Shown here: positions 9,943 to 28,231 of the stretch, in pieces
How positions within the stretch are numbered: position 1 is the first letter of the stretch
Layout: each line of letters begins with the position of its first letter
Assembly: GCA_017457625.1 (NCBI GenBank)
Contig: JAFTHC010000132.1
Coordinates: 1 to 46,561 of the forward strand
DNA: 46,561 nt
Direction of reading: 5' to 3'
Source: Kiritimatiellia bacterium
Lineage (GTDB): Bacteria > Verrucomicrobiota > Kiritimatiellia > RFP12 > UBA3636
Program-made: the position numbers and the translations under genes
Notes under the pieces: model-generated
The model's input: the letters and a program-made list of their open reading frames with translations, nothing else
What the model was told of the DNA's origin: nothing
Database searches by the model: none

Positions 9943-9989
9943 CTACATTTCTTTCGTACGCGACTGTCCGGACTGCCGCGATTCGACCC

Positions 9990-10018
9990 TTGCGGGGGAG
10001 GCGGCCATCTGCTACAAT
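9990..10018 (+). promoter_or_regulatory. sigma70-type promoter driving the structured RNA / methyltransferase leader
   Basis: TTGCGG (9990-9995), 17 bp, TACAAT (10013-10018). Confidence 0.6.
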
Positions 10019-10024
10019 CCGCCG

Positions 10025-10283: not shown

Positions 10284-10300
10284 GCCTCCTTTCCAGCCTC

Positions 10301-10326
10301 GCTCGCGATGCGTTCGCATCGCGAGC
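10301..10326 (+). promoter_or_regulatory. perfect 12-bp inverted repeat abutting the methyltransferase start codon (operator or translation-blocking hairpin)
   Basis: GCTCGCGATGCG-TT-CGCATCGCGAGC, followed directly by the ATG at 10327. Confidence 0.6.
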
Positions 10327-11343: not shown

Positions 11344-11345
11344 AA

Positions 11346-13115
11346 ATGCCTGTATCTCTTTCCGACGAGATTGACTCGATTATCAAATCCATCCCACTGG
11401 CTAGTAATAGCAGTGCGAAGTACAAAAAACTTCTGCCAAAGCTATCCGAATTATCGGGAGTTGTTGAGTCCGAAATTCATGTGACTGCCGCAAAGGCTCC
11501 TAGCAATGCTGAAGGACGATTGCGAAATGGGAAACATCAAAATCGACACTACGAGCTGTGCTTTCTTCTTGTTTCCTCTGATCGGATTGATGGCGTTGTC
11601 GGTCAATCCAAGAAGCATATTGATGACAATCTTAACGGCTTCTTTAACACTATCGTTGTTATGACGCCATCTGGAACCAACGGAAGGTGGTTGGTTTCGC
11701 ATGTCGTGACAAACAACGAAACCGGTCCCGTTGTTTCGCAACTGCTGGCGGAGTATCCTCAGGCAACAGTGCATAAGGCCGACAACATCACGCTATCGGT
11801 TCAATCAACACACACTTCCGGAATATTCTCATCCTTTGATTGGCCTCTCCAGCGCATTATCTATGGTGCGCCCGGCACAGGAAAATCCCGTACGATCAAA
11901 GACAAGATTACAGATGAGAGCATAGCGAAGGATTGTGTGTTCCGTACGATATTCCACCCTGATTCGGACTATGCATCGTTCGTAGGATGCTACAAGCCGA
12001 AGGTGGAAAGCATCCCGAAAACTGTTGTCATCGGCAAAAACATAGAATGTGCCAAGAGCACCGATCCAATTGTTTTGAACAAAGGGCTTTTGGAAGAAAA
12101 ACGCATTGTCTATACATTCGTTCCTCAGGTCTTCTTGAAGGCGTATACGAAGGCGTGGGAGGAGTTCTCATCCAACGATCCTAGCCCCGTGTTACTCGTG
12201 ATTGAGGAAATTAACCGTGGCAACTGTGCGCAGATCTTTGGCGATCAGTTCCAGCTGCTTGATCGACATACGGAATCTGGTTTTTCTGAGTATCCGATTG
12301 TTCCGGACGATGATATCCGATGCCATCTAGCCTGGGTTCTGGAAAACGCGGCAAAATCCATTTCAGCGGAAAGAAAAGACGAGATTGATGCGGCTCTTTC
12401 CGATGCGACCGAGGCAATGGTGGACTGGGACGATGTGAGTCTCGGAAATGCGCTCGTCCTTCCGCCGAACCTCTACATCTGGGCGACGATGAACACGAGC
12501 GACCAGTCGCTCTTCCCGATCGACAGCGCGTTCAAGCGGCGGTGGGACTGGAAGTACATGCCGATCCGCGAACCGGACCAGAACGAAGACGGTTCGCCGT
12601 GGACGAAATGGAAGATCGAGATTGATGCGCACCGGTACGACTGGTGGACGTTTCTCGGGAAGATCAACGGGTTGATCGGCGCCATGACGGAGTCCGAAGA
12701 CAAGAAGCTCGGCTACTTCTTCGCGAAGGCGGAGCGCGGCGTCATTTCCGCGGAAACGTTCGTCGGGAAGGTCGTGTTCTATCTCTGGCACGACGTGTTC
12801 AAGGACTACGGATTCGAACGGAACGAGTTCCAGGGCGGCAGCGGCGAGAATAAGGAAATCCTTTTCACCGACTTCTTTGAAGCCGATGGAAATCCTAAGA
12901 AGGAGACGATCATCCGTTTTCTGAAAAACCTCGACGTGCCGGACGAAAGCCTGAATACGACACCGCCTTCGCCGGGTGCCGTTCCGGCCGCCGGTTCGGC
13001 CAATGCGATTCCCGCGCCTGCGCCGATCCAACCGCCGCAGGCTGTCGCAACGGTTCCGGGCGGAGCGACCACGCCTTTGCCCACGACTCCGGCGCCGGTT
13101 CCGGCGGCGCCTTGA
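11346..13115 (+). CDS. McrB-like AAA+ GTPase restriction subunit (LlaJI R1-like)
   Basis: Walker A GAPGTGKS, Walker B LLVIEEINRGN, IWATMNTSDQSL and FKRRWDW. GGTGGAGG lies before the ATG at 11346. The C-terminal tail is Pro/Ala-rich. Confidence 0.85.
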   Translation: MPVSLSDEIDSIIKSIPLASNSSAKYKKLLPKLSELSGVVESEIHVTAAKAPSNAEGRLRNGKHQNRHYELCFLLVSSDRIDGVVGQSKKHIDDNLNGFFNTIVVMTPSGTNGRWLVSHVVTNNETGPVVSQLLAEYPQATVHKADNITLSVQSTHTSGIFSSFDWPLQRIIYGAPGTGKSRTIKDKITDESIAKDCVFRTIFHPDSDYASFVGCYKPKVESIPKTVVIGKNIECAKSTDPIVLNKGLLEEKRIVYTFVPQVFLKAYTKAWEEFSSNDPSPVLLVIEEINRGNCAQIFGDQFQLLDRHTESGFSEYPIVPDDDIRCHLAWVLENAAKSISAERKDEIDAALSDATEAMVDWDDVSLGNALVLPPNLYIWATMNTSDQSLFPIDSAFKRRWDWKYMPIREPDQNEDGSPWTKWKIEIDAHRYDWWTFLGKINGLIGAMTESEDKKLGYFFAKAERGVISAETFVGKVVFYLWHDVFKDYGFERNEFQGGSGENKEILFTDFFEADGNPKKETIIRFLKNLDVPDESLNTTPPSPGAVPAAGSANAIPAPAPIQPPQAVATVPGGATTPLPTTPAPVPAAP

Positions 13116-13139
13116 TCCGGAACGCGCCGGAGCCGAAAC

Positions 13140-15443
13140 GTGAGAATCCTCGTCGAAGGATACCCGTACGAAGAGAAGGTCGTCGAGGACGTCCTTCCGG
13201 AGGCGGCACTCCGCAACACGGACAAAAAGGTCGTGTTCGACTATGTCGGATACTGCTTCAACCCCGCGCTCGACGGCGGTAAGGGAGACTGCGTCTTCTT
13301 CCTTCCGAAGGTCGTCCTGAGCCCGGAAGGGACCGGAGCGGACAAACAGGATCTCGTCTTCGGGAAGCGTCCGGAGGAAATCGTCCGCCTGGACGCGGAC
13401 TGCCCGCTCGACGATCCGAGCCGCCGATTCCTCCATGAATTGGCGGCGTGGATTTACCGAGGGCTCGTCGTCTTCCGGAATCGCAACAAGAACAGTGACG
13501 TCCTCAAGGAACGGACGCTGCCTCGCAAGGGCCTTGCCCGGAAGCGCAGGTTGCTGACGCTTCTCGACGTGATGCTCGCGTTGCGCGACTTCGCGAAGGA
13601 GAACCGCGACTTCGTCCTTTTCCAGGTGAAGAACCTCCACCGTGGAATGAACCGGGTCGACTGGAGGAGAACCGTCGCGACGACGCAGGCGGTTGTGGCG
13701 GACGGAACGCCGGTGTATCTTTCGCCCGTCAACCGGAAGCGGGAAATCGACCTGGACGAGGAACTTCTCGTCATCTTCCAATCGATCCTGGCGCACCTCC
13801 GCGACCGCTACGGATTCGAGACGCACACCGACTTCTCCTTCGAACGGATTCCAAAAGCCAAGTTCGAAGCCTGGTTGAAGGGATACGGCAGGCGCAGGCT
13901 TCTCCAGATCAAGTACCGGTACTTCTCCGACCGGACGCTCGAACTCTGGGATCTCTGCTACGCCTTCTTCGACCACACCGGATCGCACGCGGCCGCCGGC
14001 GCGGGCAGGGAATACCTGCTCGCAAAGGACTTCCAGGTCGTCTTCGAGGCGATCATTGACGAGCTGCTCGGCGACCAAAACCTTCCCGATGCCGCCCGGA
14101 AGCTCAAGGAGCAGCGGGACGGAAAACTCGTCGACCACCTCTGGCTGGACGACAGCCTGATCCAAGGACGTTTCGATCAGGTCTACCACATCGGGGACAG
14201 CAAGTACTACAAGATCGGGGAGTCCGTCGGGACGGAATCGCGCTACAAGCAGTTCACCTACGCCCGGAATGTCGTCCAGTGGAATCTCGGACTGTTCCAC
14301 GGAACGAAAGCGGAGCGCGCGAAACGAGCGGGCGCGGGGGCATATGGCGCTTTCAAGCTGCGGGACGACGACACCGAAGGCTATGACATCATTCCGAACT
14401 TCTTCATCAGCGCCGACCTCGACCGAAGCGACCCGACCCATGCAAAGCCGGGCATCGAACCGATTGGAAATCCGGAAATCAGCCGCCAGTTCGAAAACAG
14501 ACTGTTCGACCGCGACACGCTGATCGTGTCGCGCTACAACGTCAACTTCCTGTATGTCCTTTCGCTGTACGCGCGCAACAGCGCGGCGGCAAAGCGGCAA
14601 TGGAGGGAAACCGCAGTTGGACAGTTCCGCGTCAGGATCCGGACTCTCCTGGACGGACTGTTCGAGTTTTCCGCCATGCGCCCGCGTCCGGGGACGGATC
14701 CGGTCCGCTTCCTGCGGGAGAACTTCCGCTACGTGCTCGGCAAGGTTTTCGCGCCGTGGAAAACCGGCGATACCGTCCCGTTCTATTCGCTGGCGTTGGA
14801 CAGATCACCCGAATTTGACGCCGAGAACAAGATCCTGCGAAAGGAACTGGAACGCGGATTTGAAATCGTTCCCTGTCCCCTTGGCGAAGACCCCGCCGCG
14901 CTGTTTCCTTCCACGGTTGCTGCGCCCGTCACGGCGATTCCGGCCGGCGTCCATGTCCCGCTGTATTGGCTGGAACGCTATCCCGAGGACTACATTCTCG
15001 TCGGCTGCTGTCCGGACAAAAAGCACTTTGACTGGTATTTCCGTCGGCACGAGTGGAAACAGATCGATCTTTACAACGTTCGCCTGGGCAATCGCCCGGG
15101 CGCGGTTTCAGTGCTGGCCCAAAACGCCCTCGCAAAGGCTCCGAAATTCCTCGTTCTTTACGAGGATGCGAATGCGCCCGTCAGCAAAGCCTTCCGAATC
15201 GTGGGACACAGGATCGTTTCCAGAAAAGAATTGGAAGCCTCCGGTTATCCAAAGGATCCGGGAAAGACGTCATTCAACTATCTTTGCTACGAACTGGAAG
15301 AGGAGATTTCGTTCGGTTCTCTTGACATTCCCCGGTTGCTAACCGAACGGCAAGCCGAGAATCCATCCACCTATATGCGCGGCATGCCGCTTTTCCTGAA
15401 GGGATCGGAACTGATCGGATATCGAACGAGTTCTCCCGCTTGA
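13140..15443 (+). CDS. McrC / LlaJI R2-like restriction endonuclease subunit with a ~250-aa C-terminal extension
   Basis: 767-aa ORF directly after the McrB-like gene. YHIGDSKYYK resembles the D-x-K-Y core of McrC-type PD-(D/E)xK nucleases. Operon order is MTase, McrB-like, nuclease. Confidence 0.6.
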   Translation: MRILVEGYPYEEKVVEDVLPEAALRNTDKKVVFDYVGYCFNPALDGGKGDCVFFLPKVVLSPEGTGADKQDLVFGKRPEEIVRLDADCPLDDPSRRFLHELAAWIYRGLVVFRNRNKNSDVLKERTLPRKGLARKRRLLTLLDVMLALRDFAKENRDFVLFQVKNLHRGMNRVDWRRTVATTQAVVADGTPVYLSPVNRKREIDLDEELLVIFQSILAHLRDRYGFETHTDFSFERIPKAKFEAWLKGYGRRRLLQIKYRYFSDRTLELWDLCYAFFDHTGSHAAAGAGREYLLAKDFQVVFEAIIDELLGDQNLPDAARKLKEQRDGKLVDHLWLDDSLIQGRFDQVYHIGDSKYYKIGESVGTESRYKQFTYARNVVQWNLGLFHGTKAERAKRAGAGAYGAFKLRDDDTEGYDIIPNFFISADLDRSDPTHAKPGIEPIGNPEISRQFENRLFDRDTLIVSRYNVNFLYVLSLYARNSAAAKRQWRETAVGQFRVRIRTLLDGLFEFSAMRPRPGTDPVRFLRENFRYVLGKVFAPWKTGDTVPFYSLALDRSPEFDAENKILRKELERGFEIVPCPLGEDPAALFPSTVAAPVTAIPAGVHVPLYWLERYPEDYILVGCCPDKKHFDWYFRRHEWKQIDLYNVRLGNRPGAVSVLAQNALAKAPKFLVLYEDANAPVSKAFRIVGHRIVSRKELEASGYPKDPGKTSFNYLCYELEEEISFGSLDIPRLLTERQAENPSTYMRGMPLFLKGSELIGYRTSSPA

Positions 15444-15680
15444 GAGAACTTTCCGATCCGGACGCACGCGGAAGACGAGGGAGGCGATCCGTTCGCGGAG
15501 CGCGGGCGAAGCGTCCCGTCGGGCGGGGCTGGCGGTCGGTCGAGGCTCGCCTCGGAGCGGTTCCGGGACGTCCCGGCCCTGCCGGCGGATTGGAAGAATG
15601 GAGACCCTGGCGGAAAGGACGGAACGCCGCTCTTCCGCAAGGGCGCGGAACGGACGGCGTACGCGAAGGATTCCGGACTC

Positions 15681-15743
15681 GTGGTCCCTCCGGGGCGCGG
15701 CTGCGCCGCGCCGCCGGACGGCCCGGTCTCGCCGCTCCGCGGC
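15681..15743 (+). repeat. ~60-bp direct repeat, copy A (flanks the vsr segment)
   Basis: GTGGTCCCTCCGGGGCGCGGCTGCGCCGCGCCGCCGGACGGCCCGGTCTCGCCGCTCCGCGGC compared with 16461-16520: 6 mismatches plus a 3-nt indel. Confidence 0.8.
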
Positions 15744-16014
15744 TCGGCGTTGGAACTCCGGGCGGCGGATAAATGACATTTTGTCGATTAGTCGCCCGGA
15801 GAGCTTCTCATTTTCGGGCGGCTAAACGACAATTCGGCGATTGGCCGCCCGATTTTGCTTGCATTTTCCGGCCGGTCCTGCGAAGATACGGCGCCATGAA
15901 AACGATTGATTTCATCGTCGGCGCGGACGAACTCTTCGCGGACGCCTGACTCCACCAAGCCCGCTCCGCGCGGGCGCGGAAAGCCGCGGTCGCGCGGAAG
16001 GGACTTCCGAAAAG

Positions 16015-16527
16015 ATGGACACCGTTTCACCAGACACCCGCAGCCGGATGATGTCGGCGATTCACTCGAGGGACACGAAACCGGAGGTGCTCGTGCGGAA
16101 GTTCCTCTGGCTGGAGGGATGGCGGTTCCGGGTCTGCGACAAGAAGATCGAGGGGCATCCCGACATCGTGGTGCCGCGGGCGCACGCGCTCGTGGAAGTA
16201 CGGGGGTGCTTCTGGCACCGGCACGGGTGGACGTGGGACGGACGCAAGCTCGTGCAGGAGGCGGTCTGCGACGACGCGACCTGGCCGAAGTCCAACCGCG
16301 CGTTCTGGAACGACAAGTTCCGGAAGAACGTGAAGCGCGACGAACGCCACGAAGCGCTCTGGCTCGAAGCGGGCTGGCACGTCGCCGTACTCTGGACCTG
16401 CGGGCTCACGCCCGCGAAACGCGACAAGACGCTCGCGTGGCTCGCGAAGAAACTGGAGAAGTGGTCCTTCCGAGGCGCGGCGGCGCCGCGCCGGACGACC
16501 CGATCCCGCCGCTCCGCGGCGCGCTGA
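16015..16527 (+). CDS. vsr: very short patch repair endonuclease
   Basis: SRMMSAIHSRDTKPEVLVRKFL, GHPDIVVP, VEVRGCFWHRH, FWNDKFRKNVKRD and GWHVAVLWTC match the Vsr family pattern. It is linked to a C5-methyltransferase. Confidence 0.9.
   Translation: MDTVSPDTRSRMMSAIHSRDTKPEVLVRKFLWLEGWRFRVCDKKIEGHPDIVVPRAHALVEVRGCFWHRHGWTWDGRKLVQEAVCDDATWPKSNRAFWNDKFRKNVKRDERHEALWLEAGWHVAVLWTCGLTPAKRDKTLAWLAKKLEKWSFRGAAAPRRTTRSRRSAAR
16461..16520 (+). repeat. ~60-bp direct repeat, copy B (forms the 3' end of vsr)
   Basis: See 15681-15743. It contains the palindrome GGCGCGGC-GGC-GCCGCGCC. Confidence 0.8.
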
Positions 16528-16593
16528 AGGCGGTCGGCGACCGTCTTTTCAAGCGCGGCGCCGCCGCGCCTGCCGAGGACGGGCGGATTCGGG

Positions 16594-16622
16594 TTGAATC
16601 TACGCTGCAGCGATGGTACAAT
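16594..16622 (+). promoter_or_regulatory. sigma70-type promoter, leaderless configuration
   Basis: TTGAAT (16594-16599), 17 bp, TACAAT (16617-16622). The ATG at 16629 lies 6 nt after the -10. Confidence 0.65.
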
Positions 16623-16628
16623 GGCGGC

Positions 16629-17588
16629 ATGAACACGAAACTCCCTCCTTGGGACGCCGCGCAGTGGGCGTCCGACTTCTCCGCCGCCTCCAAGGCGCGC
16701 TACGCCGGCGACTATGCCGCCGCCGACACCCTCCACGACCTCCGCGCCCGCGTCTTCGCGGACACCGTCGAGCGCGTCCGCGCGGGCGGATACACCCTCG
16801 CGGACGGCACGCGCGTCGACCTCCCCTTCTCCCCGACCGTCGGGGACGACACGCGGTTCTACGACCGCGAGCTTCCCGCCGGCCCCGCCGCCGCGCCGGA
16901 CGCCGCGCTGGCGCCCGTCGAGGTCCGCGAGGGCGACTGCCTCGTCGCCGCGCGCGAGCTCGTCGAAGCGGGCGAGGGCGAGGTCTGCGTCCTCAACATG
17001 GCGAGCCGCAGCAACCCCGGCGGCGGCGTCCACACCGGCGCCGGCGCGCAGGAGGAGCACCTCTTCCGCTCGTCGGACTACTTCCGCTCGCTCTACCGGT
17101 TCGTCGACTACGGCGCGTCCTACGGCGTCCCGCGCGCGGCGGAGTCGTATCCGCTCGACCGCGACCACGGCGGCGTCTTCTCGCGCGGGGTCACGGTCTT
17201 CCGCGGCCCGGAGCGCGAGGGCTACCCCCTCCTCGCAAAGCCGTGGCGGTGCAACTTCGTCGCCGTCCCGGCCATTTCGAACCCCGCCACGGTCCCCGGC
17301 CCGGATGGCGCCCCGCGCCTGACGCCCGCGATGGAGGCGGCGACGCGGCGCAAGATTCGCGCCATTCTCCGCATCGCCCGCGAGAACGGGCAGCGGGCGC
17401 TCGTCCTCTCGGCGTTCGGCTGCGGCGCGTTCCGCAACCCGCCGCGCCACATGGCCGAGCTCTTCCGCGACGAGCTCGCCGCCCCGGAGTTCCGCGCCGC
17501 GTTCGACCGCGTCGTCTTCTCCGTCATCGACGACCACAACGCCCGCGGCGAGGGCAACGTGAAGCCCTTCCGCGAGGTCTTCGTGTAG
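16629..17588 (+). CDS. microbial PARG-like macrodomain protein (TIGR02452 / DUF2263 type)
   Basis: VLNMASRSNPGGGVHTGAGAQEEHLFRSSDYFRSLY and LVLSAFGCGAFRNPP are the hallmark motifs. It is in frame with ORF 15906..17588. The start was set at MNTKLPPW after the promoter. Confidence 0.8.
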   Translation: MNTKLPPWDAAQWASDFSAASKARYAGDYAAADTLHDLRARVFADTVERVRAGGYTLADGTRVDLPFSPTVGDDTRFYDRELPAGPAAAPDAALAPVEVREGDCLVAARELVEAGEGEVCVLNMASRSNPGGGVHTGAGAQEEHLFRSSDYFRSLYRFVDYGASYGVPRAAESYPLDRDHGGVFSRGVTVFRGPEREGYPLLAKPWRCNFVAVPAISNPATVPGPDGAPRLTPAMEAATRRKIRAILRIARENGQRALVLSAFGCGAFRNPPRHMAELFRDELAAPEFRAAFDRVVFSVIDDHNARGEGNVKPFREVFV

Positions 17589-17631
17589 CGGCCCCGCGCG
17601 CCGTGGCGAGGCTCCGCCACGGCGCGGGTGG

Positions 17632-17661
17632 TTGGACTTTCCGCTTCGGTTCTGGTAGCAT
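17632..17661 (+). promoter_or_regulatory. possible sigma70-type promoter for the ART-like/NADAR pair
   Basis: TTGGAC (17632-17637), 18 bp, TAGCAT (17656-17661). It is preceded by a 12-bp GC hairpin (17597-17626). Confidence 0.35.
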
Positions 17662-17715
17662 TCCGTTCCGTTCTCCCCACCTGCGGAAACAGTCGCCATG
17701 TAAAAATCCTCCCTG

Positions 17716-18336
17716 ATGAAAGCGCCGGAGGCATCCGTCTTCTACCACGGCACGTCGGCCGCGCCGTTCGGCCAGTTTTCTCTCGGCCATGCGCTCGAGG
17801 GCGACGGAAAATGCAAGTTCGGCTACGGCGTCTACGTCACGGAAAGCTACGAGTCCGCCCGGCTCTACGCCGTGAAGAGCAAGGCCGGCGGGGACTGCCT
17901 CGTCTACACGGTCGAGATTCCCGCGCGCACCGCGGACAACTGGATCGCGTTCGGCGAACCGGTTCCGACGCCCGTGCTCGCGAGGGCGCGCAAGTCGCTT
18001 GGCGCCGACATCCCCGCGAAAGCGGCGGCCGACGGCAAGGAGTTCCGAATCTTCCTCGCGTGCCGTCTCGGGGGGACGAAAAAGCCGACGTTCGACGGCG
18101 AGAAGAGGGCATCGGCGTTCCTCGACGGCATCGGCGTCGACTTCATCATCTGGCCCTTCAACTGGAAGAAGGGTCCGGACAGGCGCTTCCTGCCCCCGTT
18201 CAACCGCGCCGTCCTCGACGCCGGCAAAGTCCGCATCGTCTCCGCAGACCGGCTCGACCGCGATGCGGCCTCTGCAAAGAAGCCGAAGACCGTTGTCGTC
18301 GAGACGATCGCCGCCAAGGACCTCCCGCAGGGCTGA
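17716..18336 (+). CDS. candidate mini PARP-like (H-Y-E class) ADP-ribosyltransferase
   Basis: FYHGT (His motif) followed by GYGVYVTESYESARLYA. This aligns residue by residue with the PARP donor-loop pattern G-[IV]-Y-[FV]-[AT]-[DE]-x3-[KS]-[SA]-x2-Y. It is flanked by PARG-like and NADAR genes. The catalytic Glu is not assigned. Confidence 0.4.
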   Translation: MKAPEASVFYHGTSAAPFGQFSLGHALEGDGKCKFGYGVYVTESYESARLYAVKSKAGGDCLVYTVEIPARTADNWIAFGEPVPTPVLARARKSLGADIPAKAAADGKEFRIFLACRLGGTKKPTFDGEKRASAFLDGIGVDFIIWPFNWKKGPDRRFLPPFNRAVLDAGKVRIVSADRLDRDAASAKKPKTVVVETIAAKDLPQG

Positions 18337-18340
18337 CCCG

Positions 18341-18928
18341 ATGCGCGTCTCCGACTCCATCCGGCTCCACTACCCGCAGTACTGGGGGTTCGAGACGTAT
18401 CCGGCGGACCGCGCCTGCGCGGTGTCGAAGATCGCCGCGGAGTGGGGCGTGTTTTCCAACTTCGCGCGGACGCCGCTCGTGGTGGACGGCGTGCCGTTCG
18501 ACACGTCCGAGCGGCTCTTCCAGACGATGAAGTTCACGGACCCGGGGGCCCGCCGCGCCGTCTACGGGAAGAAGGGCAACCCGAAGATGACGGCGAAGCA
18601 CTGGCAGAAGGAGGGCTTCCTGCGGCCGGACTGGGCGGAGCACGACGTCGACGCGATGAAGTTCTGCCTGATGGAGAAGTACCGCCAGAGCGCGGTCTTC
18701 CGCGCGGAGCTCGCGCGCAGCGGCGACCGCCCGATCGTCGAGGACCAGACGACCTTCCCGCGCCGCACCCCCGACGCGTGGGGCGTCAAGCGCACGCCCG
18801 ACGGCGCGTCCTTCAGCGGCCCGAACCTCCTCGGGCGCCTCCTGATGGAGCTGCGCGCGGGCGAGGGCGCGCTCGCATACACGCGTCCCCTGCCGGAGGG
18901 CATGGCGTCGTTCCGCGACCTGGCCTAA
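18341..18928 (+). CDS. NADAR (YbiA/DUF1768) family protein
   Basis: FSNFARTPLVVDGVPFDTSERLFQTMKF, DAMKFCLMEKYRQSAVFRAEL and PDAWGV fit the NADAR pattern. The ATG at 18341 lies 4 nt after the upstream stop codon. Confidence 0.75.
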   Translation: MRVSDSIRLHYPQYWGFETYPADRACAVSKIAAEWGVFSNFARTPLVVDGVPFDTSERLFQTMKFTDPGARRAVYGKKGNPKMTAKHWQKEGFLRPDWAEHDVDAMKFCLMEKYRQSAVFRAELARSGDRPIVEDQTTFPRRTPDAWGVKRTPDGASFSGPNLLGRLLMELRAGEGALAYTRPLPEGMASFRDLA

Positions 18929-19056
18929 GCGACATCGCCCGAGGTAGTTAAACGGTCTTTTCGGGCCGCGGGCGGGGCGGCCGCCGAAACTTTTTCCACG
19001 GTGCGATTGAAAAAAAGCTTGAATCCAGGTGGAAGCTGAGCATCATAGACGGTATC

Positions 19057-20778
19057 ATGAGCAATCCACCCATCATCCACCCGACCACCACCATGCACAC
19101 CTGTCTCGCCGCCGGCTCGATGCCGATGGACATCGTCCAGAAGAAGGCGCCCGATGGCTCCGTCCGCCGCCTCTACGTCCATGTCGGGGGCACGCCCGGC
19201 AACGTCGCGACCATGCTCGCGGCGCAGTTCGGCTGGCGCGCGATGCCCCTCGCGCGCTTCGACGGCTCCGGCTGGGGCCGCCGCCTCGTCGAGGACCTCG
19301 AACGCTACGGGGCCGACACGCGCTTCGTCTCCGCCGGGGGCGACGGCGGCACGACGCTCTTCGTCGAGACGCACCGGGTTGACCGGGACGGCAACCCCAA
19401 GATATCCTACCGGCCGCAGACGCCGCGGGGCGGACCGTTCACAAATTACCGATATCTCAACAAGAAGGACGTCCCGGTCTTTCTGGCCGGACTCGGCGCC
19501 GACCTCCCCGACGTCCTCTTCTACGACCAGCCCGCTGCCGGCCTCCGGACGCTCGCGGAGGCGCTTCGCCCCCGCGGGACGCTCGTCTTCTTCGAGCCGC
19601 CCACTCGGTGCGACCCGAAGGACCTCGCGAAGGCCCTCGCGTCCGCCGATATCGTCAAGGCCTCCAGCGAGGCCTACCGCGACGCGGCCTTCCTGGAGGG
19701 GCTCTCCGACAAGCTCGTCGTCCGGACGATGAACAAGGAAGGGCTCCGCTTCAACCTCCGCGGGGCGGGGTGGCGCACCCTCCCGCCCGTCGCGAACCCC
19801 GACTTCGTCGACGGGGAGGGTGCCGGCGACTGGACCTCGTCCGCCCTCCTCGCCGCGCTCAGCCGCCGCGGCCTCCCGCGCATCGCGGACCTCGACGAGG
19901 CGACCGTTGCGGACTGCCTCCGCGAGGCCCAGGAGACCGCCTCCCGCAGCGTCGGATTCCTCGGCTCCAAGGGGATGCTCGAGGACCGCTTCCCCACGCC
20001 GGCGGCGTGGCTGGACCCCGCGCAGGACCCCGCGCCGCCGCCCGCCCCGCCGTCCGGGCCGAAGAAGGAGAAGGCCGCTCCGGCGCCCGTCGACTGCAGC
20101 AGGGGCGGCACGATGTTCTGCCCGCCGACGCCGTTCGAGAAGAAGACCGGCTGGACCGTCTTCCTCGCCGGCCCGATCGGCGGCGCGCCGGAGTGGCAGA
20201 AGTCCGTCCCGAAGCTCGCCGAGAAGCTTGGGCTCGAGGGCGTCACGTGGCTCAACCCGCGCGGAAAGCACCTCTCCCACCGCCCGCAGGTCGAGTGGGA
20301 GACGCGCGGGCTCCGCGTCTGCGACTACATCCTCTTCTGGGTTCCGGAGCAAGCCAAGCCGGCCGACAAGCCCTACGCGCTCACGACGCGGATGGAGCTG
20401 GCGGAGAACCTCGCCCGCGGCAAGCGCATCGTGCTCGGCGTCGACCCGGATGTCCGCTGGATGCGCCACGCGAAGTTCCTCGCGGAGCGCTACGGCGTGA
20501 AGAAGGTCCACGCGACGCTCGAGGAGTGCCTCCGGGCGCTCAAGCGGGAGCTCGCCCGCCGCAAGCCGGCCGAGCGCGACGTCGACGGCCCCGCATGGGT
20601 CGCGGAGACGCTGGCCCGCCATCCAGTCTGCGTGGACGACCTCGCCCGGAACCAACTCCTGGTGGAGCAGTGGAACCGGGCGTTCACCCCGGGCGATGTC
20701 GTCCGCGTCCGCGGCGATCTCCCCGACGTGGACGCCTCCCTGCTCCCGCTCCTCAACGGTGACATCCGGTTCGGTTGA
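19057..20778 (+). CDS. fusion protein: PfkB-family sugar/nucleoside kinase + nucleoside 2-deoxyribosyltransferase-like domain
   Basis: N-terminal half: VGGTPGNVATMLAAQFG and DGEGAGDW (PfkB signatures). C-terminal half: VFLAGPIGGAPEW...CDYILFWVP...TTRMELA (NDT-like Rossmann pattern). Confidence 0.6.
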   Translation: MSNPPIIHPTTTMHTCLAAGSMPMDIVQKKAPDGSVRRLYVHVGGTPGNVATMLAAQFGWRAMPLARFDGSGWGRRLVEDLERYGADTRFVSAGGDGGTTLFVETHRVDRDGNPKISYRPQTPRGGPFTNYRYLNKKDVPVFLAGLGADLPDVLFYDQPAAGLRTLAEALRPRGTLVFFEPPTRCDPKDLAKALASADIVKASSEAYRDAAFLEGLSDKLVVRTMNKEGLRFNLRGAGWRTLPPVANPDFVDGEGAGDWTSSALLAALSRRGLPRIADLDEATVADCLREAQETASRSVGFLGSKGMLEDRFPTPAAWLDPAQDPAPPPAPPSGPKKEKAAPAPVDCSRGGTMFCPPTPFEKKTGWTVFLAGPIGGAPEWQKSVPKLAEKLGLEGVTWLNPRGKHLSHRPQVEWETRGLRVCDYILFWVPEQAKPADKPYALTTRMELAENLARGKRIVLGVDPDVRWMRHAKFLAERYGVKKVHATLEECLRALKRELARRKPAERDVDGPAWVAETLARHPVCVDDLARNQLLVEQWNRAFTPGDVVRVRGDLPDVDASLLPLLNGDIRFG

Positions 20779-20802
20779 GGCGTCCCACTCTCCGCCGGCA
20801 CC

Positions 20803-20836
20803 CTCCGGCGCGGCACCGCCGCGCCGGAGTTTTTTT
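20803..20836 (+). terminator. intrinsic terminator
   Basis: 12-bp stem CTCCGGCGCGGC-ACC-GCCGCGCCGGAG (20803-20829), then T7 (20830-20836). Confidence 0.8.
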
Positions 20837-20843
20837 CCGCTCC

Positions 20844-20876
20844 CGGTGTGAACAGCCCGTTCCGGCTCCGCTTTCC
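20844..20876 (+). promoter_or_regulatory. bipartite motif CGGTGTGAA-N14-TCCGCTTTCC (candidate alternative-sigma promoter), copy 1
   Basis: Both half-sites recur at 24895-24928 with N15 spacing. Each copy sits just after a terminator T-tract and upstream of a sigma-factor-containing unit. Confidence 0.4.
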
Positions 20877-20934
20877 TTCATGGAGGGCCCCTTGCATGAC
20901 GCGCCGGGCCCGACCGAACGAAAGGAATCAAATC

Positions 20935-21489
20935 ATGTACGGCACCATCCAGACCTCCGCCTCCGAAACCGGCCTCGACCTCCTCCGCGCCCACGTGGGC
21001 GGCGACGAAGCCGCGACGCTCCGCCTCTTCCGCGCCTTCGGACCCTGGCGCTTCGGCTCCCTGCTCTGGATGAAGGAAGAGCTCCTCGGCGCCCGTTGCG
21101 CCGAGTGGAAGGTCCGCGGGGACCGCACTGCCCATCCGGTGGTGTCCCTCGCGGCCAAGGCTCCGGAGTCCCTCGACGAGCCGATTCCGGTCCTCGCCGG
21201 CACCAGCACCGGCGGGAGGAAGGAGTTCTTCTCCGTGTCGGGCGTCACCGACGACGGTCGCGTCACGCGCTTCGTCCCCTACGCCCTCGCGTGGGTGACG
21301 CCCCGCGAGCTGCTGTGGCGGGACCCCGCGTGCAAGGACCTCATGGAAGGGTGGCCCTGGGAGGTCCGCCGCGCGTGGCCCAACGCGACGCTCCCGCGCC
21401 TTTCCGCCGCCAACCGCGAAGCGCTTCGCGCCTATCTGGGCGGGAACTGGCTCTTCGCCGCCGCCGTTCGCGCGAACGCGGCCGCTTGA
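20935..21489 (+). CDS. hypothetical protein (184 aa)
   Basis: In frame with ORF 20848..21489. The ATG at 20935 is preceded by AAAGGAA. No motif recognised. Confidence 0.55.
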   Translation: MYGTIQTSASETGLDLLRAHVGGDEAATLRLFRAFGPWRFGSLLWMKEELLGARCAEWKVRGDRTAHPVVSLAAKAPESLDEPIPVLAGTSTGGRKEFFSVSGVTDDGRVTRFVPYALAWVTPRELLWRDPACKDLMEGWPWEVRRAWPNATLPRLSAANREALRAYLGGNWLFAAAVRANAAA

Positions 21490-21514
21490 CGCGCGCGCGC
21501 CTTTTTGGGACACT
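21486..21514 (+). promoter_or_regulatory. possible internal sigma70 promoter, leaderless configuration
   Basis: TTGACG (21486-21491), 17 bp, GACACT (21509-21514). The ATG at 21522 lies 7 nt downstream. Confidence 0.35.
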
Positions 21515-21521
21515 TGTCCGC

Positions 21522-22475
21522 ATGAGCAACGACCTCGACGATCTCGTTCCCGGCGGGCGGACTTTCCCGCCGACCAGCCCGACGCTCCTGAAAGCCGCCG
21601 CCGCGCGGGACGACGGCGAGCCGCACGACGAAACGGCGGTCCGGACGTTCGTCGACGTCTACCGGGCCGCGCTCGACCATTTCGTCGAATTCCAGTCCGG
21701 ACAGGCGGAATGGTCCGACAAGGACGACATCGTCCTCGGCGTGTTGCGGGAAGTCCTCTCCGCCCTGCCGGGTTTCGAACGCCGCCGCGAAGGTTCGTTC
21801 CGGGCCTTTCTCAAGCGGGTTGCCGTCCACCGCCTCACGGACGCACGTCGGTCGGAAATGGCTCGGGAACGGCGCGCCCGCGAAGCGATGGACGCCCTTC
21901 CAAGTTTCGGGAACGCCGTCGCCGCCGAGGGAATCGCGGCGGCGAACGACGAGGAGAATCTCGGCTACGCGGCGCCGTCCGGTCCGTCCGCGTTCGTCTC
22001 CGGAAGCGGAACGGGCCTGGACGACGCATGGAATCTGCTCCTCTCGGCCGCGGCGCTCGCGCGGACGTTCCGCACCGCGAAGGGGTTGAGCGCGAAATCC
22101 GTCTCCATCTTCCTCCATCGGTTCCGCGGCGACGAACCGAAGGAGATCGCGGCGAAGTTCATGGTCGGGGTTTCGCAGGTTTCGAACGTCAGGGAACGGG
22201 TTTCCGCCGGCGCGAACGCAGCCCTGGCCGAAGCGGTCCGGAAGGCCGGCGGCTCGCCGCAGGACGACCCGGAAGGCGTCCTGCTTGCCCTCTTCGACGA
22301 CCGACCGCGGTTCCGCGACGCGCTCAAAGCCCGGCTCGAAACGTTCGACGACCCGGACGCCGTCCTCGCCTTCGTCGGAAAACTCGAGCGCGTCATGCAG
22401 GACCGCTGGGGCGCGACGCACCTCGGCTCCACCAAGCTGGCCGACCTGACGACCCCCGGAGAAACCGCACCATGA
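21522..22475 (+). CDS. ECF-like sigma-70 family factor with long sigma2-sigma4 linker and C-terminal extension
   Basis: Sigma2-like FRAFLKRVAVHRLTDARR and sigma4-like EPKEIAAKFMVGVSQVSNVRERV. It is the in-frame tail of ORF 20775..22475. Confidence 0.6.
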   Translation: MSNDLDDLVPGGRTFPPTSPTLLKAAAARDDGEPHDETAVRTFVDVYRAALDHFVEFQSGQAEWSDKDDIVLGVLREVLSALPGFERRREGSFRAFLKRVAVHRLTDARRSEMARERRAREAMDALPSFGNAVAAEGIAAANDEENLGYAAPSGPSAFVSGSGTGLDDAWNLLLSAAALARTFRTAKGLSAKSVSIFLHRFRGDEPKEIAAKFMVGVSQVSNVRERVSAGANAALAEAVRKAGGSPQDDPEGVLLALFDDRPRFRDALKARLETFDDPDAVLAFVGKLERVMQDRWGATHLGSTKLADLTTPGETAP

Positions 22476-22515
22476 ACGAACCCGCGCTTCCGCGCACCAC
22501 CGACCGCTGCCGGCC

Positions 22516-23523
22516 ATGACGGATGACGACATCCAGCAAGTTCTCGACCGTGGGACCGTCGGATCGGGTCCCGTCTACCGCATCGAGGAATGTCTCGGGC
22601 ACGGCGGCATGGGCGCCGTGTTCAAGGCCTACGAGAAGAGCATCGACGATCCGGTGGCCTTGAAGGTCGAGTTCCTGTCGGACGATCCGGACGAGCCCGA
22701 CTTCCGGTCGCCCGAAACGAAGGAAGAAGACCGGGAGAACGCCGTGGAACGCTTCCAGCGCGAGGTCATGCTCGCGTCGCGGCTTTCCAAGCGGAATCCG
22801 GCAATCGTGAGGGCGTCCCATTTCCAGATCGAACGCGGTCCGGACGGAAATCCCGTCCGGCTGCTCTACGAAATGGAGCAGTGCCTCATGATGCGGGAGG
22901 ACGCGCTGGGAGTCTGCCGGGCCTGGCGCGTGTACCCGCGGCCGGCCTGGTCCGGAAACTGGCCGAGGAGCGTGACGTTGCGGAACGTCATCCGGGAGGC
23001 GAACGCGTCCGGCGCCGGTTGTCTGCCGCAGGACGCGGTCGCCCGGATCGCCTTGACGCTCGTCGGGGCGCTCCGGACGGTGCACGACCGGGGCGTGGTC
23101 CACTTCGACGTGAAGCCGGAGAACGTCCTCGTCTGCAAGGGCGGCCGGTTGAAGCTGGCCGACTTCGGCCTCGCGAAACTGGCTTCCTGGGCGGCGGCCG
23201 AATCCACGACCGGCGGGACCCGTGGCTACATGGCGCCGGAGCAGTATTGGCCGGCCGCCAGGAAGGTCAAGGCCGGACCTCCGGCCGACTACTACGCGCT
23301 CGGCGTCGTCCTGAACGAGCTGCTCACGGGCCGGCGCATGGCCTGGAACACGACCGACGACGAGTGGCGGAATCCGTCCGATTCGGGAGACACCTTCCAT
23401 CCGGTCTGCCGGAACTGGGACGTCCTTCTCAAGGGCATGATGGAAAAAGACCCGCGGCGCCGGCTGGCCGACCCGGACCTGCTGCTCTTCGAATTCGGCG
23501 AAATCGCGAAAGGCCGGTGCTGA
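22516..23523 (+). CDS. Ser/Thr protein kinase (non-RD: HFD catalytic loop)
   Basis: GHGGMGAVFKA (G-loop), ALKV (VAIK-like), VVHFDVKPENVLV, LADFGLAK and GTRGYMAPE. Confidence 0.85.
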   Translation: MTDDDIQQVLDRGTVGSGPVYRIEECLGHGGMGAVFKAYEKSIDDPVALKVEFLSDDPDEPDFRSPETKEEDRENAVERFQREVMLASRLSKRNPAIVRASHFQIERGPDGNPVRLLYEMEQCLMMREDALGVCRAWRVYPRPAWSGNWPRSVTLRNVIREANASGAGCLPQDAVARIALTLVGALRTVHDRGVVHFDVKPENVLVCKGGRLKLADFGLAKLASWAAAESTTGGTRGYMAPEQYWPAARKVKAGPPADYYALGVVLNELLTGRRMAWNTTDDEWRNPSDSGDTFHPVCRNWDVLLKGMMEKDPRRRLADPDLLLFEFGEIAKGRC

Positions 23524-23524
23524 C

Positions 23525-24823
23525 ATGGCGGACACCTCGAACGAAGACGTCTGGCCCGTTTCCGCGGCCGACGCGGTCGCGCTCGGCAAGCGCCTCGAAG
23601 ACGCCGATCCCGCGGCGGCCTACGGACTCTACGCGGCCGCGGCGCGGCGCGGCGACGCGGAAGGCGCGTTCCTCGCGGGCAAGGACCGTTTCTACGGCAT
23701 CGCGCATCCGGTCGACGACGCCAAGTCCGAGGCGTTCCTGCGCATGGCCGCCGAGAACGCGTCCGCGCCGGATGCGGTCCGCGCCGACGCGTTCGACAGC
23801 CTGGGGCTGCTGTTCCTGCGGCGGAAGCAGACCGCCCGCGCCCGGAAGTATTTCACGCGGGCGTCGTCGTTCGGCTCGCTCGACTCGCTCGACAACCTCG
23901 GCAAAATGGCCCGGGACGCCGGCGACCCGGACAAGGCGCTCGGGTATTTCTCCCGCGCGGACAAGGACGCGCGCGAACGGGCCGCCGGCGCCTCGCCGGC
24001 CGAACGGGACCGGATCGACCTGGACGCCGCCTGGGCGCGGCTCCACCTGGCGTCCTTCTTGCCCTGGTGGCACGGCGATTCGGACTCTTCGGCGAAGGAA
24101 GCCCGCCGGCTGCTCGCCGACGTCGAACGGCTGCAGGACGTGTTCCTCTGGAAGGACATCGGCGACGCCTATCTGGACAGTGAATTCGAAGCGGCGGATC
24201 CGGACGCCGCCGAGACGTGGTACCGCCGGTCGGCCGAAGGCGGCTTCGCGGACGCCCAGGTCGCGCTCGCGCGGTTCCTTCTTTCCCGGAAGAAAACGCC
24301 GGAAGCCGCCGTCGAGGCGGTCGACTGGCTCGGCAAGGCCTGCGCGAAAGGCTCCTCCGAGGCGTTCCGCCTGCGCGCGGAATGCTACGCGCGGGGCGAC
24401 GGCGTGCCGCAGAACTGGTCGCGCGCGACGGTCGAATACCGCCTCGCGGCCGACTGCGCGGGCCCCGGACAGGACGACTGGATCGACGAAGCCTACCGCG
24501 ACGGCCGTTTCGGCTGGCGCCACGGCGAGGACGTCCTCGCGTGGATCCGCGCCCGCGCCGACTCCGGCGCCGTCTGGGCGCTGCGCCTATGCGTCGGGGA
24601 GACGATGCGGGAGGAAGACCCGGACGCGTTCTGGCGGTTCCTCGCCGCCGCCGCGGAGAAGGGCGTTCCGTCCGCCCAGTTCGAGCGGGCGCGCGAGCTC
24701 CTGTTCGCGTCGGACGCGCCCGCCGCCGCCGCCATGTTCCGCGCGTTCCTGGACAATCCGGACGACAAGGACGCGGAGACCGTCTCCCTCGCGAAGAAGT
24801 GGTTGGCCCACCTGGAGCGGTGA
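23525..24823 (+). CDS. Sel1-like/TPR repeat protein
   Basis: Repeated A-x-G-x6-LG/LA-x-Y/F-G-type units (GDAEGAFLAGKDRFYG, GSLDSLDNLGKMA, GFADAQVALARFLL, GSSEAFRLRAECYARGDGVPQNW). The ATG lies 1 nt after the kinase stop codon. Confidence 0.7.
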   Translation: MADTSNEDVWPVSAADAVALGKRLEDADPAAAYGLYAAAARRGDAEGAFLAGKDRFYGIAHPVDDAKSEAFLRMAAENASAPDAVRADAFDSLGLLFLRRKQTARARKYFTRASSFGSLDSLDNLGKMARDAGDPDKALGYFSRADKDARERAAGASPAERDRIDLDAAWARLHLASFLPWWHGDSDSSAKEARRLLADVERLQDVFLWKDIGDAYLDSEFEAADPDAAETWYRRSAEGGFADAQVALARFLLSRKKTPEAAVEAVDWLGKACAKGSSEAFRLRAECYARGDGVPQNWSRATVEYRLAADCAGPGQDDWIDEAYRDGRFGWRHGEDVLAWIRARADSGAVWALRLCVGETMREEDPDAFWRFLAAAAEKGVPSAQFERARELLFASDAPAAAAMFRAFLDNPDDKDAETVSLAKKWLAHLER

Positions 24824-24851
24824 CGCTTCGTCCCGGGCGGCGCAACGGCTC

Positions 24852-24888
24852 CGGCGCGGTCGCGGAAGCGGCCGCGCCGATTTTTTTT
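24852..24888 (+). terminator. intrinsic terminator
   Basis: CGGCGCGG (24852-24859), 12-nt loop, CCGCGCCG (24872-24879), A, then T8 (24881-24888). Confidence 0.7.
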
Positions 24889-24894
24889 CCGCGG

Positions 24895-24928
24895 CGGTGT
24901 GAAAACGCATGGAGAGAGTCCGCTTTCC
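24895..24928 (+). promoter_or_regulatory. bipartite motif CGGTGTGAA-N15-TCCGCTTTCC, copy 2
   Basis: See 20844-20876. It lies 21 nt upstream of the ATG at 24950. Confidence 0.4.
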
Positions 24929-24949
24929 GGAGTGAAAGGGATTCAATCC

Positions 24950-25573
24950 ATGCAAAACTCCGAAAAGAAATCCGCCGCGCTCCGCGGCACCTCCACGAAA
25001 GAATCCGCCCGCGAGGCGGACATCCTCCGGCTCGTTGCCGACAACCAGGGCCTCGTCCGCGCCGAGGCCGCCCGCGTCCTCGCGACGTGGGCTCCCGAAA
25101 ACGATGATGACGCCCGGGAGGAATGGTTCCGGGAACTGGTCCAGGCCGGCCAGCCGGGCCTCCGCCGCGCCGCGGAGAAATTCGACCCCGCCCGCGGGAC
25201 GGCGTTCTCCACGTATGCCGTGCCGTGGATTTTCAAGTTCGTCCACGAGGCCGCGGAGGAGCTCCGCGAGACCTACTGCCACGTCTCTTGCGACGCGGCG
25301 GCGGACGGCGCCGGCTCCGCGGAACTCGTCCCGGACGAGGACGCCGACGACCCCGCCGAGACCGTCGCGCGGGCGTCGGACTGCGCATGGGTCCGCGGGT
25401 GCCTCGCGGAACTCCCGGCCCGCGAGCGCCGCGTGCTCGAGCGCCGTTTCGGCATCGGGTCGCGTCCCGAGTCGACGTTTGCCGAAATCGCCGCGTCGGA
25501 GGGCGTCTCCGTCCAGTGCATCCACCGCGTCTACCAGCGCGCCCTGGCGCGGATGCGCCGGTCCGCCGCCTAG
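24950..25573 (+). CDS. sigma-70 family RNA polymerase sigma factor (small, group 3/4-like)
   Basis: Region 2 GLRRAAEKFDPARGTAFSTYAVPWIFKFV and region 4 ERRVLERRFGIG...TFAEIAASEGVSVQCIHRVYQRALARMR. The start was set at MQNSEKK after GAAAGGG. Confidence 0.8.
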   Translation: MQNSEKKSAALRGTSTKESAREADILRLVADNQGLVRAEAARVLATWAPENDDDAREEWFRELVQAGQPGLRRAAEKFDPARGTAFSTYAVPWIFKFVHEAAEELRETYCHVSCDAAADGAGSAELVPDEDADDPAETVARASDCAWVRGCLAELPARERRVLERRFGIGSRPESTFAEIAASEGVSVQCIHRVYQRALARMRRSAA

Positions 25574-25577
25574 CGCC

Positions 25578-25635
25578 CCGCGGCTCCGCGGGCGTCCGGC
25601 ACCCGCGGAGCCGCGGAACCGCGCGAGATTTTTTT
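25578..25635 (+). terminator. long GC hairpin plus T-tract (probable terminator)
   Basis: 15-bp stem CCGCGGCTCCGCGGG (25578-25592) pairs with CCCGCGGAGCCGCGG (25602-25616). T7 at 25629-25635. Confidence 0.55.
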
Positions 25636-25643
25636 CGGTGGTG

Positions 25644-25672
25644 GTGAATTCGCCGCCTTTGCCCGGTAGAAT
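25644..25672 (+). promoter_or_regulatory. sigma70-type promoter for the AAA+ operon (leader ~108 nt)
   Basis: GTGAAT (25644-25649), 17 bp, TAGAAT (25667-25672). Confidence 0.55.
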
Positions 25673-25690
25673 GGCCCCGCGCCCCGTCCC

Positions 25691-25765
25691 GACCGCCAGA
25701 CCGATCGACCATCCGACCGCCCGACCGATAGACCGATAGACCGATCGACCATCCGACCATCCGAC
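25691..25765 (+). repeat. 7-8-nt tandem array (CCGACCAT / CCGATAGA / CCGATCGA units) inside the 5' leader
   Basis: GACCGATCGACCATCCGACCGCCCGACCGATAGACCGATAGACCGATCGACCATCCGACCATCCGAC read directly. Related arrays lie at 31134-31160 and 35154-35192 (reverse complement). Confidence 0.8.
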
Positions 25766-25786
25766 TTCAAAATACAGACACACGCC

Positions 25787-28228: not shown

Positions 28229-28231
28229 GGG

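Follow-up and report, generated by a model that had tools for sequence, protein, structure and literature searches.

We analyzed a stretch of 46,561 nucleotides (nt) from a Kiritimatiellia bacterium (contig JAFTHC010000132.1; hereafter the window), in which four consecutive + strand genes include those for a putative ADP-ribosyltransferase (ART) and for a NADAR protein, a type of enzyme that reverses base ADP-ribosylation. In order, the genes encode a 319-amino acid (aa) PARG macrodomain protein (16629..17588; PF10021, TIGR02452), a small stand-alone ART of 206 aa that is ART-PolyVal/DUF3990-like by fold and signature (17716..18336), a YbiA-type NADAR of 195 aa that scores above its family cut-off (18341..18928), and a 573-aa fusion of a PfkB-family kinase to a domain resembling nucleoside 2-deoxyribosyltransferases (NDT), with PfkB and Nuc_deoxyri_tr2 scores both above cut-off (19057..20778). 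All four open reading frames (ORFs), first named in an account made from the letters of the DNA (the sequence-only reading), are real, and family searches upheld their domain assignments. Comparison with other genomes reveals that the ART-NADAR pair, not the set of four genes, is the conserved unit, and this is the strongest signal in our data.

The 206-aa protein had been proposed to be a PARP-like ART, and its predicted fold bears this out. In a Pfam scan at E <= 0.1, it matched ART-PolyVal (PF18760) with 21.9 bits, against a gathering cut-off of 31.2, and also gave a sub-threshold match to DUF3990; some of its homologs have precomputed PF18760 matches. The motifs FYHGT and GYGVYVT...Y are present in the window protein and invariant in 39 homologs, and the residues H11, G12, Y40, Y51, Y64, N75, E129, and W146 are invariant among the 39 aligned members. 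By alignment, the key + strand codons are those for H11 (17746-17748), Y40 (17833-17835), Y51 (17866-17868), and E129 (18100-18102), a spacing that appears to mirror the catalytic residues of diphtheria toxin (H21-Y54-Y65-E148) and PARP1 (H862-Y896-Y907-E988). The E129 column is Glu in 51 of 61 short homologs. In the copies of this domain that occur in polyvalent proteins, the H, Y, Y, and N are conserved, and 29 of 37 copies have D, E, or Q at the column of E129, as in the classic H-Y-[E/D/Q] signature.

An AlphaFold model of the ART, built on the family alignment (pLDDT 93.6, pTM 0.89), matched ARTD-type folds exclusively in the PDB, namely a cyanophage ejection protein (E 2e-6, TMq 0.54), diphtheria toxin, PARP1/2/4, exotoxin A, and cholix. 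Among the predicted viral structures of BFVD, the best matches were ART-PolyVal domains (E 8e-12 to 1e-7, TMq 0.6-0.7), while a search of PDB sequences with the ART profile returned one marginal match, to PARP12, that covered the H and Y motifs. Given the ARTD-type fold match and the H-Y-Y-[E/D/Q] signature, we accept the protein as an ART of the H-Y-E (diphtheria toxin/PARP) class, at the level of predicted fold and signature. The domain also occurs in larger proteins. Giant polyvalent-type proteins (P0205-P0304; 2,000-6,440 aa) carry 2-3 copies, each with a variable insert that separates the H/Y half from the [E/D/Q] half, and other fusions (among P0157 and P0159) join it to Sel1 repeats (363 aa) or to a helix-turn-helix (HTH) domain and a HAD phosphatase (830 aa).

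The NADAR gene starts 4 nt after the ART stop codon. Its product matches PF08719 (E 8e-18, above cut-off) and E. coli YbiA (E 3.5e-12). Residues E57, K64, E134, and E170 are kept in 51-55 of 55 ART-linked NADARs, and the residues corresponding to the first three matter in catalysis (PMC11543638). The E134 position is Glu in all 55 and aligns to the YbiA Glu; thus, these NADARs are of the YbiA type.

To survey the pairing, we gathered loci by exact-protein look-ups and by a scan of one genome per species, found partners with iterated profiles of the window proteins, and collapsed the ARTs at 90% identity, which left 41 non-redundant clusters with genomic context. A NADAR lies within 300 nt of the ART in 33 of these clusters and within 1.5 kb in 38. 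ART and NADAR also form single polypeptides, in a Bacteroidales genome (L022) and in five further 50%-identity clusters (P0178, P0183, P0192, P0199, and P0202). Since linkage in 38 of 41 clusters is joined by recurrent fusions, the comparison with DarT-NADAR pairs drawn in the sequence-only reading is apt. Its expectation that all four genes would be co-conserved did not hold, as no other locus that we gathered has intact PARG, ART, NADAR, and PfkB::NDT genes together.

The ART family comprises 121 clusters at 90% identity, and a profile search of 1.84 billion proteins retrieved 579 representatives at E <= 1e-10. By distribution, this is a cellular family and not a viral one: it occurs at 53 loci among 185,579 species genomes versus 1 in 2.9 million viral contigs (IMG/VR), and tblastn with the ART found no match in 50,697 phage or 72,556 plasmid records. 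The one contig from the viral collection (L075; IMGVR_UViG_3300042816_000186, 4974-7274) has the order ART-NADAR-ARH, where ARH is an ADP-ribosylglycohydrolase, as do L041 and L042. Among the four window proteins, NADAR alone matches PHROGs. ART-NADAR pairing is abundant in ruminant/gut Bacteroidales and in Verrucomicrobia. Several independent ART-NADAR loci are adjoined by restriction-modification (R-M), McrBC, NERD-helicase, or Schlafen/AlbA genes. The 134 immediate neighbors of 38 such loci include Pfam matches to WG_beta_rep (7), AAA (7), HD (5), and RtcB RNA ligase (3) and PADLOC matches that are IetA-like (6), TRIP13-like (4), MkoA-like (3), or Zorya-like. From this gene context, a role in defense is plausible.

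Upstream of the pair, the PARG protein is a clear family member (PF10021, E 2e-29, 103.3 bits; TIGR02452, E 5e-44, 150.9 bits; both above cut-off) and is homologous to PARGs of known structure from T. curvata and D. radiodurans (E 5e-27). When aligned to T. curvata PARG, its catalytic loop, GGG(131-133)-X7-QEE(141-143), is intact (nt 17019-17057). PARG is found near the ART in 5 of the 41 clusters and an ARH-type ADP-ribosylglycohydrolase in 9, so that a second eraser of either kind accompanies about 14 of 41. In the Bacteroidales locus L022, PARG precedes the ART::NADAR fusion in the same order as in the window, with 46%, 49%, and 50% identity to the window PARG, ART, and NADAR, respectively; these matched identities and the shared order suggest inheritance as a block.

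The closest relatives of the locus are in an uncultured Verrucomicrobia metagenome-assembled genome (L012; 97% nt identity) and in L065 (~85%). Both lack window positions 15954-17315, which hold vsr and the first 229 PARG codons, the 5′ two thirds of the gene. In these relatives, PARG is reduced to a 3′ remnant of ~88 codons that is 98-99% identical to the window, while ART, NADAR, and PfkB::NDT are retained. PARG is thus dispensable for the other three genes. The earlier picture of a writer flanked by two different erasers stands in that a second, chemically different eraser recurs across loci, but the PARG itself can be lost here. The indel spans 15882-17316 of the window, 5219-6609 of L012, and 784-2174 of L065, with an 11-bp overlap at the junction, and in place of vsr and the 5′ part of PARG, both relatives have an unrelated 417-aa ORF with weak HTH and NERD matches.

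The last of the four genes has three parts on the + strand. These are a PfkB-family kinase (nt 19102-19968, aa 16-304; 35.5 bits, cut-off 25.8), an NDT/DNPH1-like putative N-glycosidase of the Nuc_deoxyri_tr2 family (PF15891; nt 20155-20436, aa 367-460; 46.8 bits, cut-off 30), and a degenerate remnant of a metallophosphoesterase N terminus (~nt 20539-20775, aa ~495-573), recognized by alignment to NDT-only relatives. The kinase motifs GGTxGN (VGGTPGNV) and EGAGDW are conserved across its PfkB clade. In the NDT domain, the TTRxE glycosidase motif is conserved and its Glu (E97 of the domain) is invariant. A model of this domain (pLDDT 86.7) was closest by Foldseek to a putative Parabacteroides NDT (4mcj; E 1e-6, TMt 0.75), with trypanosomatid (T. 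brucei) NDTs, the CMP N-glycosidase BcmB, and DNPH1/Rcl as further fold neighbors, while a search of PDB sequences with the domain found no match. BcmB and DNPH1/Rcl cleave the N-glycosidic bonds of nucleoside 5′-monophosphates. The C-terminal tail of the fusion aligns with the N-terminal part of the Metallophos_2 domain of NDT-only relatives (P0145-P0149), where the domain is intact; the tail is truncated and lacks the D-x-H metal motif, and the stand-alone NDT protein of L068 has the same remnant.

A PfkB kinase lies within 7 kb of the ART in 14 of 41 clusters (within 1.5 kb in 10) and an NDT-like domain near it in 5; at least one accessory enzyme (PfkB, ARH, PARG, or NDT) accompanies the ART in about 25 of 41. 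The kinase occurs in at least four gene orders around the pair: ART-PfkB-NADAR with overlapping stop and start codons (L026, L034, L038, L040, L048, and L058), 3′ of ART-NADAR (L049-51), 5′ of it (L055), and as the PfkB::NDT fusion after NADAR (the window, L009, L010, L012, and L065-67). In L068-70, PfkB and NDT are separate genes found together with ARH. The link between kinase and NDT that the window suggested thus recurs in other lineages, both fused and as separate genes. Only 35 clusters in 5.8 billion proteins make up this PfkB clade, and in all three contexts checked at >=40% identity, it adjoins NADAR and/or ARH, with the ART absent in two. In the latter (L072 and L073), a very acidic 198-aa protein precedes the kinase (4403-4999 and 2171-2767, respectively). 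We considered these proteins as ARTs and rejected them, as they form a separate acidic family with 44% identity to each other.

The four genes had been described as one unit running from promoter to terminator, and both end signals are present. A sigma-70-like promoter, TTGAAT-17-TACAAT with a TG-extended -10 element, lies at 16594..16622 (+) and is identified by consensus match; its 3′ end is 6 nt before the PARG ATG, so that a leader would be absent or nearly so. It is the single match to TTGAAT-N16-18-TACAAT in the 46.5-kb window, whose G+C content is ~70% but lower between 5 and 16 kb, and 0 are expected in shuffled sequence. At the other end, an intrinsic terminator (20803..20836, +; folding z = -4.0) has a 12-bp stem with 11 G-C pairs at 20803-20829, followed by T7. 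However, a GC-rich hairpin without a T-run directly follows the PARG stop codon (17589..17634, +; -39.2 kcal/mol, z = -2.2) and is possibly a terminator or attenuator that separates PARG from the ART-NADAR pair, and a TTGAAT-type element is also found upstream of the PfkB::NDT gene. Since these two signals interrupt the unit, a single four-gene operon is doubtful, and three transcription units are at least as likely. A further candidate terminator 3′ of NADAR, from a scan match at 18971-18985, gained no support from folding (z = 0.13) and was rejected.

Further differences show that gene turnover is concentrated in this region. Between NADAR and PfkB::NDT, L012 carries an additional gene (~250 aa; 8198-9299, compared with window 18913-19098) that comes with a TTGAAT-type promoter-like element of its own; this gene is weakly similar (70-74% nt identity) to the 5′ part of a double AAA+ ATPase gene of the window (25787-28228; match 25812-26619). 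L012 also lacks window 20782-28266. On the 5′ side, + strand restriction genes precede the four genes: a C5 methylase (10282-11343), a McrB-like AAA subunit (11334-13115), and a LlaJI-like endonuclease (13140-15443), followed by Vsr (16015-16527). These lie in or next to a low-GC island (5000-16000; 50-62% versus ~70% G+C) in which several ORFs at 6-9 kb have no family matches. Since the island is absent from L012 and L065, it is probably a recent insertion. The restriction locus does adjoin the four genes, as the sequence-only reading held, but it is strain-specific, and this adjacency carries little weight. The four genes themselves have host GC content, unlike the island.

Downstream, positions 20782-31018 encode an unknown 213-aa ORF, a sigma-like protein (21486-22475), a Ser/Thr kinase (22516-23523), a Sel1-repeat protein (23525-24823), an extracytoplasmic function (ECF) sigma factor (24899-25573), the double AAA+ ATPase, and a VWA protein (29258-31018). 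Possibly this block is a conflict-type system in its own right, or else a partner that recurs with the module. Metallophos-VWA-Pkinase genes lie 3′ of ART-NADAR in L001 and L002, sigma and Pkinase genes in L065, and Sel1-repeat proteins recur beside the module (L003, 9171-11333; L009, 5933-7801; L073, 3810-7649). Elsewhere in the window are a DUF2828/DUF7788 protein (2905-4461) and a 2,025-codon ORF (31845-37922) whose true start is uncertain, with a ClpB-like part (Clp_N and two AAA modules) only from about residue 1245.

The module resembles DarT1-NADAR and YarT-YbiA, yet it is not a member of DarTG1 and looks like an undescribed relative. As in DarT1-NADAR (DarTG1), the ART gene is directly followed by NADAR in one operon, the catalytic Glu and Lys of NADAR are kept, reversible N-linked ADP-ribosylation of bases would be expected, and the neighborhood is variable and of defense type. 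In contrast to DarT1, the window ART gives no PF14487 signal and no DarT fold match, being ART-PolyVal/DUF3990-like, and the DarTG1 antitoxin belongs to the BC4488 clade with Asp (D171 in E. coli C7) where the window module has Glu, E134 (criterion from PMC11543638). With an ART from outside the DarT family and a Glu-type NADAR, the module falls outside DarTG1. The window family also differs in its frequent PfkB, ARH/PARG, NDT-like, and ART::NADAR associations and in its occurrence in Bacteroidales and Verrucomicrobia.

The myxobacterial YarT-YbiA system (Cihlova et al., 2024; PMC11125620) likewise pairs a small H-Y-E ART unrelated to DarT with a YbiA-type NADAR, and its relation to Rhs-type toxins (HYD1/DUF3990-like), together with the weak DUF3990 matches of the window ART, hints at kinship. 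However, YarT has 114 aa and its catalytic residue is E92, whereas the window family has 185-206 aa, a helical insert of ~50 residues, and E129. NADAR comes first in YarT loci and the ART first in the window; YarT is described from three myxobacteria with no accessories reported, whereas the window family forms 121 clusters. The ART-PolyVal domain (PF18760) of polyvalent proteins from phages and conjugative elements provides the best structural match and shares the H, Y, Y, N, and [E/D/Q] positions, and profile searches with the window ART family retrieve polyvalent proteins. In contrast to that domain, the window ART is stand-alone, cellular, below the Pfam cut-off, partnered with erasers, and nearly absent from viral contigs.

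Other systems share less. DS-32 (PRTase + NADAR) and PDC-M42 resemble the module in that NADAR and an enzyme transferring ribosyl or phosphoribosyl groups form a validated or candidate anti-phage system, but the window NADAR scores 87.8 bits against DS32_2 (cut-off 240) and its partner is an ART, with no PRTase in the locus, while M42A/M42C matches are marginal (E 0.04/0.0065 for the window; 1e-6 at best for relatives). The pseudouridine kinase YeiC and glycosidase YeiN offer a parallel in logic, a PfkB kinase with a glycosidase that needs a 5′-phosphate; the window glycosidase has a different fold from YeiN, its fold neighbors including the nucleotide N-glycosidases DNPH1 and BcmB. Literature searches (NADAR with PfkB, ART-PolyVal, and DUF3990) turned up neither an account of NADAR paired with an ART-PolyVal-like ART nor one of a link between NADAR and PfkB, and no report of a substrate for any ART-PolyVal-type domain, although such domains abound in phage polyvalent proteins. 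The view that the combination is not a named system is upheld, as no PADLOC model fits it beyond weak matches.

Published work frames what these enzymes could do together. NADARs remove ADP-ribose from guanine and cytosine bases of DNA and RNA, and they serve as antitoxins for DarT1 and YarT (PMC11543638, PMC11125620, PMC11833690, PMC12945103). For YbiA-type NADARs, the native substrates are 5-phosphoribosylamino pyrimidines, which they cleave; ARTs of the ScARP type, for their part, modify guanine nucleotides in free form (PMC11543638). Bacterial PARG removes 2′-OH- and phosphate-linked ADP-ribose from RNA, which NADAR does not (PMC11833690), and DUF3990 occurs as an Rhs toxin tip (PMC4524185).

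A model that we regard as evenly balanced between right and wrong, drawn from sequence and predicted structure, is that the locus encodes a reversible ADP-ribosylation module like DarT1-NADAR and YarT-YbiA, but built around another ART family, supplemented with processing enzymes, and located in a variable island. The ART would use NAD+ to place ADP-ribose on a cellular or invader target, most likely the exocyclic amine of a guanine-type nucleobase in DNA or RNA, judging from the linkages that NADARs reverse. The co-translated YbiA-type NADAR would cleave the resulting N-glycosidic link, so that the two would act as a toxin-antitoxin-like pair; the ART target, its toxicity, and a role in defense are points that we infer. 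The second eraser, PARG here and ARH elsewhere, may clear O- or phosphate-linked or polymeric ADP-ribose. The PfkB kinase could then phosphorylate the 5-OH of a ribosyl or nucleoside product, with the ribosyl “scar” left after pyrophosphate cleavage and the ADP-ribosylated nucleoside from nucleic-acid turnover as candidate substrates. The NDT-like glycosidase, or the YbiA-type NADAR, would subsequently cleave the N-glycosidic bond of the 5-phosphoribosyl compound. Kinase and glycosidase might thus provide a second clean-up route, much as pseudouridine kinase and pseudouridine-5′-phosphate glycosidase act in turn.

Several observations weigh against this model. The window ART scores below every curated family threshold, and E129 is predicted to open a helix that immediately precedes strand 5, whereas the corresponding Glu of diphtheria toxin and PARP is on the strand. 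The isoelectric points of the ART family (median 6.9) are inconsistent across members and give no hint of nucleic-acid binding. The counts of defense-gene neighbors are raw, without a background rate, and lend themselves to qualitative use only; in PADLOC, the four window proteins and the Bacteroidales trios gave marginal matches only (PDC-M42A/C and PDC-M13A/B). Searches of PDB sequences with the kinase returned uninformative sugar kinases, and the kinase and glycosidase substrates are ones that we purely infer. Finally, covalent writer-eraser fusions are unusual for a classic type II toxin-antitoxin system and would run a futile, NAD+-consuming cycle unless regulated.

These fusions, together with the nucleotide-type accessories, sustain the main rival explanation, which we consider unlikely: ART, NADAR, PfkB, NDT-like, and ARH/PARG enzymes would act sequentially on soluble nucleotides derived from NAD+ or ADP-ribose and leave macromolecules untouched, making, recycling, or destroying an ADP-ribosylated nucleoside or nucleotide or an ADP-ribose-derived signal. 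The occurrence of fusions in at least six lineages is easier to reconcile with successive steps than with antagonists, and the accessories are all nucleotide or ribose-phosphate enzymes (kinase, N-glycosidase, phosphoesterase remnant, the HAD fusion P0159, and cpYpsA/SLOG in L001). The native substrates of YbiA-type NADARs and the free-nucleotide modification by ScARP-type ARTs (PMC11543638) fit as well, and NADAR/SLOG/Macro neighborhoods are predicted to process soluble ADP-ribose derivatives (PMC9503650). However, structurally the ART is nearest to toxin-type ARTs and to effector domains of phage polyvalent proteins, the ART-NADAR pairs described in print are toxin-antitoxin systems, and no biosynthetic or transport genes are co-conserved. 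Moreover, accessories are absent at ~40% of loci, so the pair must work alone.

In a somewhat more doubtful alternative, ART-NADAR is the sole functional unit in the window, and PARG and PfkB::NDT are independent island neighbors with their own promoters and different substrates. The hairpin after PARG, the separate TTGAAT-type elements before PARG and the kinase gene, the loss of PARG in the closest relatives, the extra L012 gene between NADAR and PfkB::NDT, and the rarity of PARG and NDT (5 of 41 clusters each) all point this way. Yet PfkB, ARH, PARG, and NDT recur beside the pair across phyla and orders, with overlapping start and stop codons in the ART-PfkB-NADAR operons; the order and matched identities of L022 suggest block inheritance; and the PfkB clade is hardly ever found outside such contexts.

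It is improbable that the module is counter-defense or mobile-element cargo whose ART hits host or competitor targets on behalf of an integrative element or prophage while the hydrolases protect the carrier. Such a role would fit the best structural matches, which are phage polyvalent and ejection proteins, the giant polyvalent proteins with 2-3 domain copies, and the very large YjiV-type helicases, typical of mobile elements, that adjoin some loci. It does not fit the near absence of the family from the viral contigs and its absence from the phage and plasmid records, the host GC of the window genes as opposed to the R-M island, or the lack of integrase, conjugation, or secretion genes beside these window genes. 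Very improbable is an immunity or repair cluster in which the erasers and the kinase-glycosidase clean up damage from the ART toxins of competitors and the ART-like protein is inactive or regulatory, since, although several erasers of differing specificity lie together and PARG and NADAR have been proposed as defense modules against ART toxins (PMC11833690), the ART retains all catalytic-signature residues under strong conservation and is the most constant NADAR partner, and a conserved, active-looking writer would not be needed.

Within the model of a reversible ADP-ribosylation module, the kinase invites a bolder proposal that we hold to be speculative and probably wrong as it stands: that PfkB, with or without NDT, phosphorylates the ADP-ribosyl or ribosyl base adduct and so either makes the mark resistant to erasers from elsewhere, for instance phage NADARs, or turns ribosyl “scars” into 5-phosphoribosyl substrates for NADAR or NDT. 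If true, nucleic-acid ADP-ribosylation would be written, phosphorylated, and erased, a chemistry not described for defense or toxin-antitoxin systems.

Together, the features of this locus suggest that a third lineage of ARTs, the ART-PolyVal-like one, formed a partnership with NADAR independently. The points of interest are this entry into the ART-PolyVal class, the writer-eraser fusions in many lineages, and the unexplained role of the kinase. A small soluble pair with natural fusions offers a tractable route to what the ART-PolyVal class modifies. The dedicated kinase, the NDT-like glycosidase, and the alternating ARH and PARG suggest that more than one step may be required to clear ADP-ribose adducts, a question that concerns all ADP-ribosylation systems.

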